From the IMG/VR virus record IMGVR_UViG_3300047557_001530, positions 1-64,000 of that record: a DNA stretch of 64,000 bases; one strand, 5' to 3'. Origin of the DNA: a virus. The translations under genes and the position numbers were made by a program. The stretch's first letter is position 1; every line of letters begins with the position of its first letter. Shown here in pieces: positions 1-30,091 of this stretch. Below the pieces are notes generated by a model. The model saw nothing but the letters and a program-made list of their open reading frames with translations. It was not told where the DNA came from and ran no database searches.

Positions 1-24
1 ACCTGGGGCACTGTGGGGGCAGAG

Positions 25-65
25 TGGACAGTGCCCCCACCCTGCCCCTATACTGATCAAGTCAA
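25..65 (+). promoter_or_regulatory. Early sigma70-type promoter cassette 1
   Basis: TGGACA (25-30), N18, TATACT (49-54), then GATCAAGTCAACC. The same block recurs before later early genes. Confidence 0.75.
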
Positions 66-79
66 CCAACGACAGAGCC

Positions 80-841
80 ATGCTCACCTTCTCCAAAGGC
101 AACGCCAAGCTGGGCACCCAGACCCTGATCTTCAACCTGCCCGCTGGCAAGACCTGCCCAGGTGCTATGTTCTGCAAGTCGTTTGCTGTTGTTGATGCAA
201 ACGGCAAGCGTAGCATTCAAGACACCGAGCACACCCAATTCCGTTGCTTCGCTGCATCTTCTGAGGTGCAATACGATGGGGCATTCTACAACCGAGCAAA
301 CAACCTGCAAACCGTTGTAGACTACCTGCAGGTGGGTGTTGATCACGCTGCCGACCAGATTAACGTTGCATTGCAACACTTTAAGACTCGCAACACCAAG
401 CTGGTTCGCATCCATGAGTCGGGCGACTTCTTCAGCCTCGCTTATCTTGAAGCATGGGTGAAGGTTGCACAGATGAACCCCAATCTCAAGTTCTATTGCT
501 ATAGCAAATCGCTTCACATCTTCACCGAGTTCGGTGTAGCTAACCTGCCTGCCAATTTCTATCTCACTGCATCCTACGGTGGCAAGTTCGACTACATGAT
601 CGACGAAGGTTTGTTCACTCGCTATAGCAAAGTGGTGATGACCGATGATGATGCAAACCGTCTCGGTCTTGAGGTTGATCACGACGACAGCCACTGTTTC
701 GGTGCTGAACCGTTCGCCCTCCTGGTGCATGGCACCCAGCCCAAGGGCAGCGACTGGGGCAAGGCGATCCGCCAGCGTCGCCAGGCTGGGCAGTTCGGAG
801 GCTACAGCAAGGCGAACGCCAGCCAGGCTGTGCCAGTCTGA
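80..841 (+). CDS. Gp88-like phage protein (radical-SAM-like, Cys motif)
   Basis: GNAKL start, FNLPAGKTCPGAMFC...RCFA Cys triad and RIHESGDF motif typical of the GP88 family. Preceded by a promoter cassette. Confidence 0.7.
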   Translation: MLTFSKGNAKLGTQTLIFNLPAGKTCPGAMFCKSFAVVDANGKRSIQDTEHTQFRCFAASSEVQYDGAFYNRANNLQTVVDYLQVGVDHAADQINVALQHFKTRNTKLVRIHESGDFFSLAYLEAWVKVAQMNPNLKFYCYSKSLHIFTEFGVANLPANFYLTASYGGKFDYMIDEGLFTRYSKVVMTDDDANRLGLEVDHDDSHCFGAEPFALLVHGTQPKGSDWGKAIRQRRQAGQFGGYSKANASQAVPV

Positions 842-25902: not shown

Positions 25903-26109
25903 ATGAACAATTACATTAAAGTTGAAGGTCATGAAAATTTATATCGAGATCCTTCCACTGGTGCCATAGTTAATACAGGTGTTCCAGCCAAGAATACATT
26001 ATCAAAAACTGTTAACACTGTAGTTGATGACATAAATAATTTGAAGAATGAAATTTCTGAAATCAAATCTCTTCTAAAAAATATCGTAGAAAATGGCATT
26101 AAATCGTAG
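25903..26109 (+). CDS. Small structural protein (68 aa)
   Basis: KVEGH.NL.RD..TGAI.N plus a coiled coil; typically follows the VrlC-like gene. Confidence 0.75.
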   Translation: MNNYIKVEGHENLYRDPSTGAIVNTGVPAKNTLSKTVNTVVDDINNLKNEISEIKSLLKNIVENGIKS

Positions 26110-29100
26110 AGAAGTACTAAAAACGAATACGTTTGAAGAGCAAAGGCTTGAGATAAATCGATTAGCTCAAGACGTTTACGATGTCTTTACGGGAGAAGAG
26201 GGTGTAGAAGCTATTCAGATCGATGGTCCTATTATTGATGGGACAGATAAAACAGGAACTCAAGGTCAAGTATTATTATCAACTGGATCTGGTGTTCTAT
26301 GGAAAACATTATCAATCTCTAATGTTCTTTGGGTAACTAAAGATGGTGATGATGACAATGATGGTTTAAGTCAAGAAACAGCAAAGGCATCTATTGGATC
26401 AGCTCTTAGAGCCGCTAATTCTGGATTTCTAGGAAAACTTCAAGACGCATCAAATCAAATTTTAGCTAACAAAAAATTAATCCAACAAGAATCTATTGGC
26501 TGGCTGCTCACAGAATATCTTAAAGAAGGAAATGGAGATAAACAAATTGATGCAGCTAATTTAATAACTGCAAACAAAGATTTTATTGCTAATGAAGCTG
26601 TCGAAAGAATGCTCGGAGAGTATTCTGAATTTACAATTCCTGGAGGAAATCAGCAGTGTGTTAGTGATGTAATCAAAGTATTAGATGCTGTAATTTTTAA
26701 TTTGAGATATGACGGCAATAATAAAGTATATGAAGCAGCAAATGTATATGTAACAAATCCATCTTTATTGGCTGGAGAAAGAGAACAGTCAGTAGCTGTT
26801 TATGAATATGCAAGAGATCTAACAATTTCTGTAATGAGAAATCAACCAATCACTGTGCAAGGGTCTCATGGATATACACAATTTATTGACAACACTATCA
26901 TCGGTGATGCTTCAAATCAACCAGGAATTTATAATTTTTTAACAGATTGTGCCGATATAGCAAGTTCTATTACTTCGCTATATGCAATAATTTTACAAGC
27001 TATTGGAACAGAAGCATCTCCAGGAGATCTTGATGGAATTACAAAAACATATCCAAATAGATTTACATTTCCAAATAGTCCACCAGAATCTGGAAGATAT
27101 AAGGATGCAAGAAATTTAATTTATAGAAACATTGATGAAATTGCTGATAGAGCACTTGCAGAAATTGCAATTCAGTATGACGAATCTACCTGGGGAACTG
27201 ATTGGACTTTCCCGAGTGCTTCTCTTTCTGCAGAAACACAGCGTTATAAAGATGCTTATAGATTAATACAAAATAATAGAGCTTATATTATAGAAGAAGC
27301 ATTTAACTTTTTATTAGTAAATTATCCTTCATTTGTAAATCCTGATAGTGATAAATGCAGAAGAGATCTTGGTTATTTTATTGATGCAGTATCATTAGAT
27401 TTATTCTTGGGAAGCAACAAATATTCAAGAAAATTTGCTTCTTTCTATTATAGTGGTGCTAATGTTCAATATTTGGAAGATGAAGTTACTGAATCTGTAG
27501 CAGCTTTTGAAGCTGCAAAAGATTTAATGATTGACGCAATGAAAAATCTTTTACCATATCAAGATTTGAGCATTACTGTAGATAATGACCCAGATGGAGT
27601 TTGTTTAAACGTAGAGCAATCAATCAATACTTTATTTACTATTATTTCTGATGTGCTATTAAATGGTATAGATGAATTACAAGCATATCCAGAAACACCA
27701 AGCAATTTATTTGTAAACGAATCAAAATGTCGTAGAGATATAGAATATGTTGCCCGTAGCATTGCAGATGATTTATATAACGGAGGCAACATAAACACAA
27801 TTAGAGCAGCAAGAAAATATTTTGATATTGATGGAGAATTTATTTTAATTGATGGTGAAGGTGTTCAATCACTCATAGCTTTCCAAAAAGCTGGTGAAAT
27901 GATTAACAAAGCTTTAACCAACCAGCTTTATGAAAAGAATTTAACTTTACCAGAAGCAGCAGCAGAATATGGTGGAGAAGGTGAAGTTATTCCATATGGG
28001 GTTTCTGGAAATGAAAATACATGTATAGATGTACAAAATACCGTCAATACATTAATTCAAATTTTAACTACAGTTATAGAAGACGAAACTTTAATATCAC
28101 TAACTGGCATAGAAGAGAACGAAGGTATTTGGGCAGAATATGAAAATATTTGCTTGAGAGATATTGGGTATATTATTGATGCTGTCGCATCTGATTTAAA
28201 ACAAGGCGGAAATGTAAACTGTGTAGATGCTGGTAATGCATACTATAAAGGTAATGAACTAGTCTTTATTGATGGAGAAGAAAGACAGTCATTAGCTACT
28301 TTTGAAAAAGCTAAAGAATTGATGATTTTAGCTATGCGTAATTGGAGTCTTAATATAGATGGAGATACATATCGTCCAAAATATACCTTTATAGAACCAT
28401 ACATTGACTCATCGTTAATTATTGATACAGAGTTAAATGAAGAAAATCAATCTGTATTAGTATATCCGCCATGCAGTGATGTAGCTTCCTCAATTGAAAA
28501 CTATTTTAATATTATTGAATATATTATTAAAAATGGAGAAAACTCTGTAGCACAACAACTACCTTCATTTAAGACTACAGTATTTGTTAAGTCAGGGGTT
28601 TATGTAGAGCAAAACCCAATGACATTACCACCAAATACAGGTATTGTTGGCGACAACTTAAGAGAGGTTAGTATTTTGCCAGCTATTCCTACCGTTGATA
28701 TGTTCTATATGAACAATGGTAGTTATATTACTGGGGCTACATTTTCTGGACATTTGGCTCCATCTGCAATTGGATCATTCCCCAAAGTATTAATTGGTAG
28801 CCCAGTAAACTTACCTTCTTGCTCTGGAATATCAAATTCATATACTATTACAGTTCCAGGTACAAATAACCTTGTTCTTGGAATGACTGTTAGTGGAGAT
28901 GGTATTGGTACGGGAGCTGTAATTACTAAAATTAGAGGTTCGCAAGTAACGTTAAGTGTTGCAAATAGAGAATCATTTACAAATAGAACTATTAAATTTG
29001 AAAACTATGTTGGTCTTACTGGAGTTATTACTCGTTCTCCATATATTCAAAACTGCACCAGTTTAACAACTACTGGTGCAGGTCTTCGTGTTGATGGTAA

Positions 29101-30091
29101 TTTAGCTAGTGGAACCGCATCTTTCGTTCTTGACTCATACACTCAATACAATCAAGGTGGTGATGGTATTGTTATCGTAAACCAAGGTTATACTCAGTTG
29201 GTATCTATCTTTGAAATTTGTTGTGATCGTGCTGTTTATTTGTCTGGCGGATCTACTTGTTCGATTACAAACTCAAACACAGACTTTGGTAATTTTGGAT
29301 TGGTAGCTGATGGAACAAGTCCTTTGCAATATAAAGCAAATATTGACTTTAATCAATTAAGAGGCAGTACTTTTAAACTCAAAAATTTAAGAACAGAGCC
29401 TTATGTAGGACAGGTAATTACTTTTGGTAATAATGGGGATCCATACTATTTTATTCAGGAGATAAATATAACTAATAGTGGTTCTGGATATAATCCAAAT
29501 GATCCACCTACTATTGTCATTGATGCACCAACAGGTCCAGATGGTATTACAGCCCAAGCAATAGCTAATATTGAAGACGGCGAAATTACATCAATTACAT
29601 TGATTTCATCTGGTTCTCAGTTTATCACTGCTCCAAATATTCAAATTGTGGGTGGTGATCCTGATACTCCTGCTACAGCAATAGCTAAAATGTATCCTCA
29701 ATATTATAGTATTATTGCTACTACTGATGTTGATGGAGGAAAATCTACCATTACATTGGATGAAACAGTTCCTTTTGATTTGAATGATAATACAGAAGTT
29801 TACTTCTATCAAGTAACTAAGATTATTGCTAACTCACATTGTTTTGAATATGTTGGTGCAGGAACACAAATTAATAAGGCTATCCCAGCCAAAGGTGGTG
29901 TTCCGTCCCAAGCCTGTGAAGTTGTTGAATTGAATGGTGGTAAAGTTGCTTTTACAAGTACAGATCACCTAGGTAATTTTAGAATTGGTACAGGTATTCA
30001 AATTAACCAAAATACTGGTACATTATCTGGCGACTCCTTTGAAAGAAGTCTTTTCGTAACAGTAACCCCATTCATTCTAGCCCTATCCTAA
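26093..30091 (+). CDS. Virion fibre or tailspike-like protein: pectin-lyase-like beta-helix with four inserted phycobiliprotein-beta-like domains
   Basis: N-terminal T4-type attachment motif (TNTFEEQRLEIN), split beta-helix cap (WVTKDGDDDNDG...TVFVKSGVYVE), SPYIQNCTS beta-helix, and four CxxD..Y..DA...DL..GGN repeats. Confidence 0.75.
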   Translation: MALNRREVLKTNTFEEQRLEINRLAQDVYDVFTGEEGVEAIQIDGPIIDGTDKTGTQGQVLLSTGSGVLWKTLSISNVLWVTKDGDDDNDGLSQETAKASIGSALRAANSGFLGKLQDASNQILANKKLIQQESIGWLLTEYLKEGNGDKQIDAANLITANKDFIANEAVERMLGEYSEFTIPGGNQQCVSDVIKVLDAVIFNLRYDGNNKVYEAANVYVTNPSLLAGEREQSVAVYEYARDLTISVMRNQPITVQGSHGYTQFIDNTIIGDASNQPGIYNFLTDCADIASSITSLYAIILQAIGTEASPGDLDGITKTYPNRFTFPNSPPESGRYKDARNLIYRNIDEIADRALAEIAIQYDESTWGTDWTFPSASLSAETQRYKDAYRLIQNNRAYIIEEAFNFLLVNYPSFVNPDSDKCRRDLGYFIDAVSLDLFLGSNKYSRKFASFYYSGANVQYLEDEVTESVAAFEAAKDLMIDAMKNLLPYQDLSITVDNDPDGVCLNVEQSINTLFTIISDVLLNGIDELQAYPETPSNLFVNESKCRRDIEYVARSIADDLYNGGNINTIRAARKYFDIDGEFILIDGEGVQSLIAFQKAGEMINKALTNQLYEKNLTLPEAAAEYGGEGEVIPYGVSGNENTCIDVQNTVNTLIQILTTVIEDETLISLTGIEENEGIWAEYENICLRDIGYIIDAVASDLKQGGNVNCVDAGNAYYKGNELVFIDGEERQSLATFEKAKELMILAMRNWSLNIDGDTYRPKYTFIEPYIDSSLIIDTELNEENQSVLVYPPCSDVASSIENYFNIIEYIIKNGENSVAQQLPSFKTTVFVKSGVYVEQNPMTLPPNTGIVGDNLREVSILPAIPTVDMFYMNNGSYITGATFSGHLAPSAIGSFPKVLIGSPVNLPSCSGISNSYTITVPGTNNLVLGMTVSGDGIGTGAVITKIRGSQVTLSVANRESFTNRTIKFENYVGLTGVITRSPYIQNCTSLTTTGAGLRVDGNLASGTASFVLDSYTQYNQGGDGIVIVNQGYTQLVSIFEICCDRAVYLSGGSTCSITNSNTDFGNFGLVADGTSPLQYKANIDFNQLRGSTFKLKNLRTEPYVGQVITFGNNGDPYYFIQEINITNSGSGYNPNDPPTIVIDAPTGPDGITAQAIANIEDGEITSITLISSGSQFITAPNIQIVGGDPDTPATAIAKMYPQYYSIIATTDVDGGKSTITLDETVPFDLNDNTEVYFYQVTKIIANSHCFEYVGAGTQINKAIPAKGGVPSQACEVVELNGGKVAFTSTDHLGNFRIGTGIQINQNTGTLSGDSFERSLFVTVTPFILALS

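Follow-up and report, generated by a model that had tools for sequence, protein, structure and literature searches.

Phycobiliprotein-like domains, probably nested within one another, in a tail-fibre/spike-type protein of a T4-like cyanophage

Described systems and the cyanophage gene

Recursive nesting of a domain within copies of itself is rare, and the documented example that we found is Si3 of the cyanobacterial RNA polymerase, the part of the beta' subunit RpoC2 that consists of recursively nested hybrid-motif domains and that in Prochlorococcus comprises eight domains in a six-level architecture (PMC13114784). A system that is close in another respect is ApcE (LCM), whose alpha-allophycocyanin-like domain carries a PB loop of 50-70 residues at positions 78-143 (PMC11789067, PMC7787483). 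Here we describe a cyanophage gene at 26093..30091 of the window (i.e., the whole 64,000-nt stretch of DNA that was analysed), the product of which can be compared with both. As in Si3, copies of one fold are predicted to lie inside their own copies at a fixed loop with recursion over several levels, and the whole array is itself inserted in a host element. It differs from Si3 in its fold, which is all-alpha and globin-type rather than a beta sandwich-barrel hybrid, and in its host element, which is a virion spike rather than the polymerase trigger loop; compared with Si3, close orthologues of the phage protein have 1 to 8 domains, and the wider phage family reaches depth 10 and also includes plain tandem arrays. 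With ApcE, the phage array shares the fold (4xxi) and, when compared by region, an insertion just ahead of the E helix, whereas the PB loop is flexible and basic instead of being a folded domain copy, and ApcE, a component of the phycobilisome, has one such domain. The likeness extends to the alpha and beta subunits of phycobiliproteins (CpcA, CpcB and CpeB), with PF00502 above threshold and fold matches of Z 16-17.6, but the phage unit appears to have no X-Y hairpin of its own and occurs repeatedly within a virion protein. In its N-terminal cap motif and first rung, the phage protein is like family members that match models of right-handed beta-helix tailspikes, DUF1565 (PF07602) and pectate-lyase-like proteins; it differs from the latter in that a 715-residue domain array separates the cap helix from the first rung. 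A literature search found no published description of phycobilisome, PF00502 or globin-like domains in cyanophage fibres and nothing relevant on nested insertion.

The product of the gene is matched by PHROG tail-fibre families with E values from 1e-126 to 1e-108. Homologues of the gene were found by tblastn in 394 Synechococcus and Prochlorococcus phage records, where their annotation reads short tail fibre, tail fibre or structural protein; cultured relatives with homologues include S-PM2, S-RSM4 and S-WAM2. Megablast found no near-identical record in the phage collection. The adjoining genes are gp25-, gp6- and gp8-like baseplate genes, and the gene sits in a T4-like cyanophage module that encodes baseplate and fibre proteins. 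No phycobiliprotein-like domain was found in the neighbouring large ORFs of the window.

Half-domain layout and phycobiliprotein fold

HMMs for the half-domains, derived from the four N- and four C-halves with one refinement round on homologues, place the halves within residues 113-813 in the order N1 N2 C2 N3 N4 C4 C3 C1 (Table 1), with CxxD sites at residues 189, 422, 546 and 687. The same order had been given by an earlier, sequence-only reading of the window, each of whose coordinates lies within about 6 nt of the HMM placement. A second profile, A2, is independent of the half-domain HMMs; 45 diverse homologues supplied the units for it, all of them contiguous. When the phage genome was searched in six frames, A2 detected each split half by itself (C1, E 8e-35; C3, E 1e-27; N3, E 3e-6; N1, E 4e-6), with profile positions 35-158 matched by C3 and 44-158 by C1; the E values for the contiguous domains 2 and 4 are 1e-46 and 1e-56, respectively. 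The order could in principle be an artefact of detection, if the protein were a degenerate tandem array of N-C units, some halves of which are no longer recognizable after decay; indeed, the short N-half model overlooked many N-halves in distant giant relatives that the full-unit profile finds to be present. However, the gaps between neighbouring halves are just 3 (N1-N2), 16 (N3-N4), 18 (C4-C3) and 19 (C3-C1) residues, with junction linkers of 3-27 residues overall, while a lost C-half would need ~120 residues and a lost N-half ~33. Hidden degenerate partner halves therefore have no room, and we consider the chance of a decayed tandem array to be negligible. The one DNA-level repeat found within the array is a 53-nt stretch of 75% identity; thus, the copies are old and bear no sign of recent duplication.

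Table 1. Positions of the gene and of the parts of its product in the window
Feature	Position	Strand	Remarks
Whole gene	26093..30091	+	1332 aa, one ORF; tail-fibre/spike-type virion protein of T4-like cyanophage
5' half of beta-helix cap motif	26330..26422	+	Residues 80-110, 'WVTKDGDDDNDG...' plus cap helix (regex)
N1, N-half of outermost domain 1	26429..26524	+	Residues 113-144; equivalent of helices A-B
Domain 2 (N2+C2, contiguous)	26534..27007	+	Residues 148-305 (N2 148-180, C2 185-305)
N3, N-half of domain 3	27089..27187	+	Residues 333-365
Domain 4 (N4+C4, contiguous, innermost)	27236..27661	+	Residues 382-523 (N4 382-414, C4 418-523)
C3, C-half of domain 3	27716..28081	+	Residues 542-663; equivalent of helices E-H
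C1, C-half of domain 1	28139..28531	+	Residues 683-813
3' half of cap motif / first beta rung	28568..28612	+	'FKTTVFVKSGVYVEQ', residues 826-840
Beta-rich spike body and C-terminal region	28613..30088	+	Residues 841-1332; PHROG tail-fibre families cover 971-1331

The whole protein scores 38.9 bits with PF00502, for which the Pfam gathering cut-off is 22.2; on the units alone, the scores are 24.0 bits for residues 145-312 and 20.1 bits for residues 378-532 against the same cut-off, and both contiguous units match profile positions 28-102. In the AF2 model of residues 75-840 (pLDDT 79.5, pTM 0.72), domain 4 (model residues 304-449) aligns with phycobiliprotein beta chains at Z 17.6 and an rmsd of 2.0 Å over 135 residues, covering chain residues 30-176. 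Domain 2 (model residues 73-240) matches phycobiliproteins and globins, with a Z of 12.5 and an rmsd of 2.5 Å over 123 residues for 1b8d_A (VIA), and the ApcE bilin domain, 4xxi_A, aligns with the model at Z 14.4 and 2.2 Å over 117 residues. As modelled, the contiguous units 2 and 4 of the array have the globin-type phycobiliprotein fold. A shape search of the ESM Atlas with the same model was uninformative (best TM 0.24).

The A2 profile aligns with CpcA (8iml_A) at E 3e-6, such that the family cysteine falls on Cys84, the counterpart in CpcA is 'KCARDIGYY' and the junction between N- and C-halves lies in the B-E loop. Equivalents of Cys84, Arg86 and Asp87 are present in 98, 94 and 99%, respectively, of 1974 distinct domain copies; in the protein described here, the motif is C-x-R-D in three domains and C-V-S-D in domain 2. 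This profile alignment and the structural alignments from chain residue ~30 bear out the earlier suggestion that the break falls just before the CxxD helix, in the B-E loop, and the further suggestion that this is where ApcE carries its PB loop, reported at 78-143 (PMC7787483), agrees with a comparison by region. Most alignments, as well as the repeat unit, start at phycobiliprotein chain residue 27-33; some structural rows reach chain residue 3-7 via the preceding N3 helices (model residues 273-300), the meaning of which is uncertain. Because the repeat unit begins at about residue 30 of a phycobiliprotein, it appears to be without its own X-Y hairpin. In phycobiliproteins, this helical hairpin makes the alpha-beta monomer or dimer.

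Balanced units and the pairing of split halves

Orthologues that are ~70-80% identical to the protein differ from it solely by clean, balanced indels. P0084 (792 aa) has one contiguous domain; its residues 1-141 correspond to residues 1-141 of the query with 78% identity, and its residues 149-792 are collinear with query residues 684-1332 with 72% identity. As P0084 aligns to both ends of the query, N1 and C1 are one domain, which is here split by 542 residues. Similarly, residues 1-141 of P0014 (1140 aa) align with query residues 1-141 (83% identity) and its residues 142-1140 with query residues 321-1332 (81%), so that domain 2 is a clean indel relative to the 3-domain orthologues, while the 341 additional residues of P0008 (1670 aa) are one nested pair. 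The domain number among close orthologues is 1, 3, 4, 5, 6 or 8, 4 being that of the protein described here.

Each N-half was then written as an opening and each C-half as a closing bracket for 121 close homologues and 142 family representatives (263 proteins). The resulting strings are balanced in 99 of the 121 close homologues and 82 of the 142 representatives and, among the nested ones, in 89 of 101 and 24 of 30, respectively, with depth up to 10. At the thresholds used, about one-fifth of the close homologues and two-fifths of the distant representatives are unbalanced, and those unbalanced cases that were looked at individually seem to be cut proteins or to contain half-domains that were matched partially or not at all. 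For distant relatives, the halves were classed by their coordinates on a full-unit profile, which replaced the short N-half HMM; the appearance of distant tandem arrays as runs of C-halves was an artefact of that HMM, which overlooked most N-halves. The family, with 1565 clusters at 50% identity, extends from plain tandem arrays of ~30 units up to depth 10 (P0123).

An arrangement in which the order carries no nesting meaning, with N-halves stacked on their sequence neighbours in a linear fashion and C-halves as autonomous four-helix bundles, would be in keeping with N-halves that are short (~33 residues) and directly consecutive in deep nests. Against such an arrangement, helices A-B of the globin-type core come from the N-half in the contiguous units, and this core can be superposed on phycobiliproteins from chain residue ~30 onward; most complete proteins have as many N- as C-halves, with brackets that balance; the units removed by orthologue indels are balanced in every case; N1 is joined directly to C1 in the 1-domain orthologue; and a pTM of 0.72 across 766 residues favours an interlocked body over beads on a string. 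A linear arrangement is thus very improbable in our judgement.

The nested parse 1(2,3(4)), which the sequence-only reading had put forward, is supported by the orthologue indels and the balanced strings, copy number in homologues varying by whole balanced units, and also by a pairing test that is based on similarity profiles. The contiguous units nearest to N1 and those nearest to C1 are the same six, all from 1-domain orthologues. Within the query, the similarity profiles correlate at 0.24 for N1-C1 and 0.34 for N3-C3, compared with -0.08 for N1-C3 and 0.17 for N3-C1, and, of 19 sequence clusters in the family, 17 have the bracket pairing as their best assignment, where 6.2 would be expected (P ~4e-10); these figures were obtained at a tighter clustering threshold than the initial ones, which gave one single cluster. 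This test reads shared history rather than contact, and the inner levels are not separable from each other by it. Judged by their sequences, the split halves that are matched by brackets share a subfamily history.

On the structural side, the aligners returned just the contiguous domains 2 and 4 (VIA-align, with the Foldseek top 1000 chains and 48,161 representatives). Beta-helix spikes are usually trimers, and in the presumed trimer a split N-half might be complemented by a C-half from an adjacent chain (3D domain swapping). Isolated N3 (residues 325-378) can be docked in trans, albeit weakly, on a C3+C1 fragment (residues 536-830), with a score of 0.36, which is in the low range and was obtained with our own alignments, compared with 0.02 for the best control; contact agreement was at least 51% and partner pLDDT at least 52 in these runs. 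Among 80 solved complexes, 58 came up to the mark, as did 2 of 110 mismatched pairs; with a score of 0.60 or lower, just seven of those 80 and both of the passing mismatches did so. These counts apply only roughly here, since our own alignments were used. The result for N3, which lends weak support to the nested pairing as well as to swapping, may stem from likeness to solved phycobiliproteins and, with C3 and C1 used together, does not distinguish N3 on C3 from N3 on C1. Pairing between chains is, however, not required by a monomer model that already has a pTM of 0.72 or by indels of balanced units, and the 3-27-residue junction linkers fit insertion in cis; we consider such swapping to be unlikely. 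Under the nested parse, we infer that N1 folds together with C1 and N3 with C3 within the same protein.

The beta-helix cap and the proposed appendage

In P0027, P0037, P0061, P0069 and P0046, the cap motif is contiguous, its 3' half directly following the cap helix. The region P0069:300-620 matches positions 3-60 of the DUF1565 profile (E 2e-7) and positions 3-54 of a Pel9A-like beta-helix, and the cap motif also matches N-terminal positions of pectate-lyase-like models. These contiguous counterparts confirm that the array splits a beta-helix cap motif, as had been read from the sequence. The Pfam Beta_helix model matches the query at E 0.76, which is below the Pfam threshold, and no Pfam or PDB sequence match was found for residues 820-1332. 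An AF2 model of P0084, intended to show cap, domain and beta-helix jointly, is of low confidence (pLDDT 50.9, pTM 0.34), probably because of the fragment-based alignment or the need for a trimer; its body region is all short strands, and the best Foldseek matches of this low-confidence model, which are suggestive only, are beta-helix tailspikes and depolymerases (E 6.6e-7, TM at most 0.16).

Based on these results, we propose that the protein very probably contains a 1(2,3(4)) nest of four phycobiliprotein-like domains that is an excursion from a beta-helix cap and evolves by balanced units. Residues ~110-826 would leave the right-handed beta-helix at the loop that joins the cap helix to the first rung and form four phycobiliprotein-like globin-type domains (helices A and B followed by E-H, without the X-Y hairpin), of which domains 2 and 4 are contiguous and domains 1 and 3 would be discontinuous, the latter two each accommodating same-domain copies in the B-E loop before the Cys-x-Arg-Asp helix. 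Given the topology 1(2,3(4)), the chain would run outward via the N-halves and back via the C-halves, and the two ends of the array would re-enter the beta-helix at one point. The array may form a branched side arm, which would be rigid, fork once and sit on a trimeric spike. At the B-E loop, single domains or complete nests would be gained or lost as balanced units, and such events would alter the domain number and leave the host domain and the spike undisturbed. The function of the array is most likely contact with the host surface or binding of a ligand, possibly bilin.

It is conceivable, though doubtful, that bilins are covalently attached to the array, which would then serve as their scaffold and be a pigmented, possibly light-responsive appendage of the baseplate. 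With the Cys-x-Arg-Asp triad kept, a trimeric spike could hold as many as 12 chromophores within a body that is rigid and interlocked. If so, indels of balanced units would tune the number of domains and hence the number of chromophores and the reach of the appendage, and phage-encoded genes for bilin synthesis and lyases would gain a substrate on the virion. What makes the gene particularly useful is that its close orthologues are a natural series of 1, 3, 4, 5, 6 and 8 domains with one insertion site in a beta-helix cap. This series displays growth of the array by balanced units, offers ready constructs for structural and folding studies and sharpens the question of bilin binding on the virion. 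The principle of recursion found in Si3 would also build these virion proteins, a family that is widespread in cyanophages, with the use of the fold of the host's light-harvesting pigment-proteins.

Setting of the gene and insertion of the array into the cap

In this T4-like cyanophage (virus record of 171 kb, ~33% G+C), the window corresponds to the structural region; there the spike/fibre gene lies between a collagen-like fibre gene on its downstream side and, upstream, two giant ORFs together with gp25-, gp6- and gp8-like baseplate genes. Its product matches PHROG tail-fibre families (E 1e-126 to 1e-108), and tblastn found relatives, all at <60% identity, in 394 records of Synechococcus and Prochlorococcus phages, where the annotation reads short tail fibre, tail fibre or structural protein. 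At the window start, positions 1-2000 have a G+C content of 58.5%, versus 28-41% in the remainder, and ORF 2..841, which runs off that end, matches Pfam GP88 (PF17338, E 8e-42); possible explanations are foreign or mobile DNA and an assembly join.

The N-terminal beta-helix cap motif is uninterrupted in six relatives (P0027, P0037, P0061, P0069, P0093 and P0046), where 'YVTKDG.D.N.G' is followed by the cap helix and 'GTV.KV..G.Y.E.NP'. P0069:300-620 matches N-terminal positions 3-60 of DUF1565 (E 2e-7) and the N-terminal positions of pectate-lyase-like and Pel9A-like beta-helix models. In the 1332-residue protein the motif breaks off after the cap helix (~residue 110) and restarts at 826. Because it is contiguous in the relatives and split here, the array is inserted where the cap helix otherwise leads into the first rung, in agreement with the sequence-only reading that the domain block splits the cap. 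A beta-helix body for the 1332-residue protein is suggested tentatively.

Four N-halves (~33 residues) and four C-halves (~110-130 residues), with clear homology among copies, make up the array, and half-domain HMMs reproduced the order first read from the sequence, with positions within a few bases. Profile A2, based solely on the contiguous units found in 45 diverse homologues, recovers the split halves as hits in their own right in a six-frame genome search (C1, E 8e-35; C3, E 1e-27; N3, E 3e-6; N1, E 4e-6). Neighbouring halves are only 3-19 residues apart, which excludes hidden partner halves.

Positions of the spike/fibre gene and of the half-domains and triad cysteines in its product
Feature	Position	Strand	Remark
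Spike/fibre gene	26093..30091	+	encodes 1332 residues
N-halves, starts	residues 113, 148, 333, 382		half-domain HMMs
C-halves, starts	residues 185, 418, 542, 683		half-domain HMMs
Cys of Cys-x-Arg-Asp triad	window 26657, 27356, 27728, 28151 (residues 189, 422, 546, 687)

Phycobiliprotein-like identity of the repeat unit

The repeat unit is a phycobiliprotein-like domain. The protein scores 38.9 bits with Pfam PF00502 (Phycobilisome protein), above the cut-off of 22.2, each contiguous unit matching profile positions 28-102, and A2 finds CpcA (8iml_A) with E 3e-6. In the A2-CpcA alignment, which extends from helix A/B through the conserved Cys of the family, that Cys corresponds to Cys84 of 'KCARDIGYY', and the N/C-half junction falls in the B-E loop, where the phage unit is shorter than CpcA by seven residues; the break was thus rightly located in this loop, before the CxxD helix. 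By its reported residue range (78-143), the PB loop of ApcE, a 50-70-residue insertion in the alpha-allophycocyanin domain (PMC11789067, PMC7787483), lies in that region too, ahead of the E helix.

AlphaFold2 modelling of residues 75-840 from 29 orthologue rows gave a pLDDT of 79.5 and a pTM of 0.72. Within the resulting model, N4C4 (model 304-449, protein 378-523) superposes on residues 30-176 of phycobiliprotein beta chains (Z 17.6, rmsd 2.0 Å over 135 residues). A structure search independent of Foldseek again ranked phycobiliproteins first (Z 16.2); the ApcE bilin domain 4xxi_A scored Z 14.4, and domain 2 (model 73-240) also matches phycobiliproteins and globins. From the profile and structural alignments, the unit is a globin-type core, A, B | E-H, that lacks its own X-Y hairpin. 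In several structural alignments, helices just before domain 4 align with the X-Y hairpin region (beta chain residues 3-30), model 273-300 (protein 347-374) being the second helix of N3 and the following turn; the enclosing domain's N-half may therefore pack on the inserted domain as the hairpin does.

The Cys-x-Arg-Asp triad aligns with the bilin-binding phycobiliprotein residues Cys84, Arg86 and Asp87, and its Cys, Arg and Asp are conserved in 98%, 94% and 99% of 1974 distinct domain copies, respectively; in domain 2 here the Arg is gone, leaving C-V-S-D. All four domains also have a second Cys where the last helix begins, as do 47% of family copies with a residue at that column.

Nesting of the split domains

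The half-domain order had been parsed as 1(2,3(4)), with contiguous domains 2 and 4 inside split domains 1 and 3. The orthologue P0084 (792 residues) has a single contiguous unit between the two cap halves; its residues 1-141 align with 1-141 of the 1332-residue protein (78% identity) and 149-792 with 684-1332 (72%). N1 and C1, here 542 residues apart, are thus the two halves of P0084's single domain. P0014 (1140 residues) aligns over 1-141 with 1-141 (83%) and over 142-1140 with 321-1332 (81%), leaving out residues 142-320, so that domain 2 is a clean single-unit indel. P0008 (1670 residues) has 341 extra residues, equal to one nested pair. The strings of the orthologous group, NC, NNNCCC, NNCNNCCC, NNNNCCNCCC, NNCNNNCCNCCC and NNCNNNCCNNCCNCCC, are all balanced.

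A profile search of 1.84 billion representatives yielded 1565 clusters of the domain family. Parsed with the full-unit profile, its members are mostly plain tandem arrays of up to ~30 units. The comparison of repeat number and nesting in homologues, proposed earlier as a check, bore the parse out: copy number varies, and 89 of 101 nested close homologues and 24 of 30 nested representatives are balanced, the deepest nest reaching depth 10 (P0123). Those unbalanced cases that were inspected seem to stem from cut proteins or from half-domain matches that were missed or partial.

Many relatives (P0027, P0030, P0037, P0061) have an intact cap motif near residue 65 and nests ~300 residues further on, up to six deep in P0030; the same type of array therefore occurs at two or more sites in spike proteins. 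A second domain-bearing gene of this phage, outside the window (G000:C1:139961-143023, open frame of 3447 aa), has an N-half, a contiguous unit and a C-half, a two-level nest, with a further unit ~2 kb downstream.

Since domains 2 and 4 are contiguous, only two pairings are left for the split halves. Profiles of similarity to 1506 contiguous units, compared between N- and C-halves, correlate at 0.24 for N1-C1 and 0.34 for N3-C3, versus -0.08 for N1-C3 and 0.17 for N3-C1, and N1 and C1 have the same six contiguous units of the data set as their nearest. Family-wide, 17 of 19 sequence clusters have the bracket pairing as their optimal assignment, where 6.2 would be expected (P about 4e-10). This shows common descent of bracket partners, as expected if whole units were inserted; contact is a separate matter. 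Indirectly, the pTM over 766 residues would fit an interlocked body and is untypical of beads on a string. In a trans-complementation fold using our own alignments, N3 (325-378) and the C3-C1 fragment (536-830) gave a weak pass (score 0.36, best control 0.02; agreement between runs in at least 51% of contacts, partner pLDDT at least 52). Of the solved complexes, 58 of 80 reached the mark, as did 2 of 110 mismatches; scores of 0.60 or less include just 7 of the 80 complexes and both passing mismatches. Since structures are solved for relatives of the domain to which the halves belong, likeness to solved phycobiliproteins may account for the pass. All five lines (indels, balance, shared history, pTM and trans fold) favour N1-C1 with N3-C3, and the claimed nesting is upheld by the balanced orthologue indels, the joining of N1 and C1 in P0084, the family balance and the shared history.

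Proposed working and place among known architectures

We propose that the chain would exit the spike at the cap, pass outward via the N-halves and come back via the C-halves, so that the array's two ends would meet at a single point and two chain crossings would clamp every level. The loop of domain 1 would hold two inserts (2 and 3) and that of domain 3 one (4), giving one fork. Each loop could gain or lose units with the host fold untouched, which would account for the orthologue series. The shape of the array is inferred, as is its function, which may lie in reach or in binding the host surface or a ligand.

In our literature search, no paper described PF00502-like domains in virion proteins of phages, or the nesting of such domains. 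Among documented architectures, the Si3 region of cyanobacterial RpoC2 comes closest, with eight domains and six-level recursion (PMC13114784). To this the spike/fibre gene adds a small, well-resolved nested member, set in a beta-helix cap and accompanied by a graded orthologue series.
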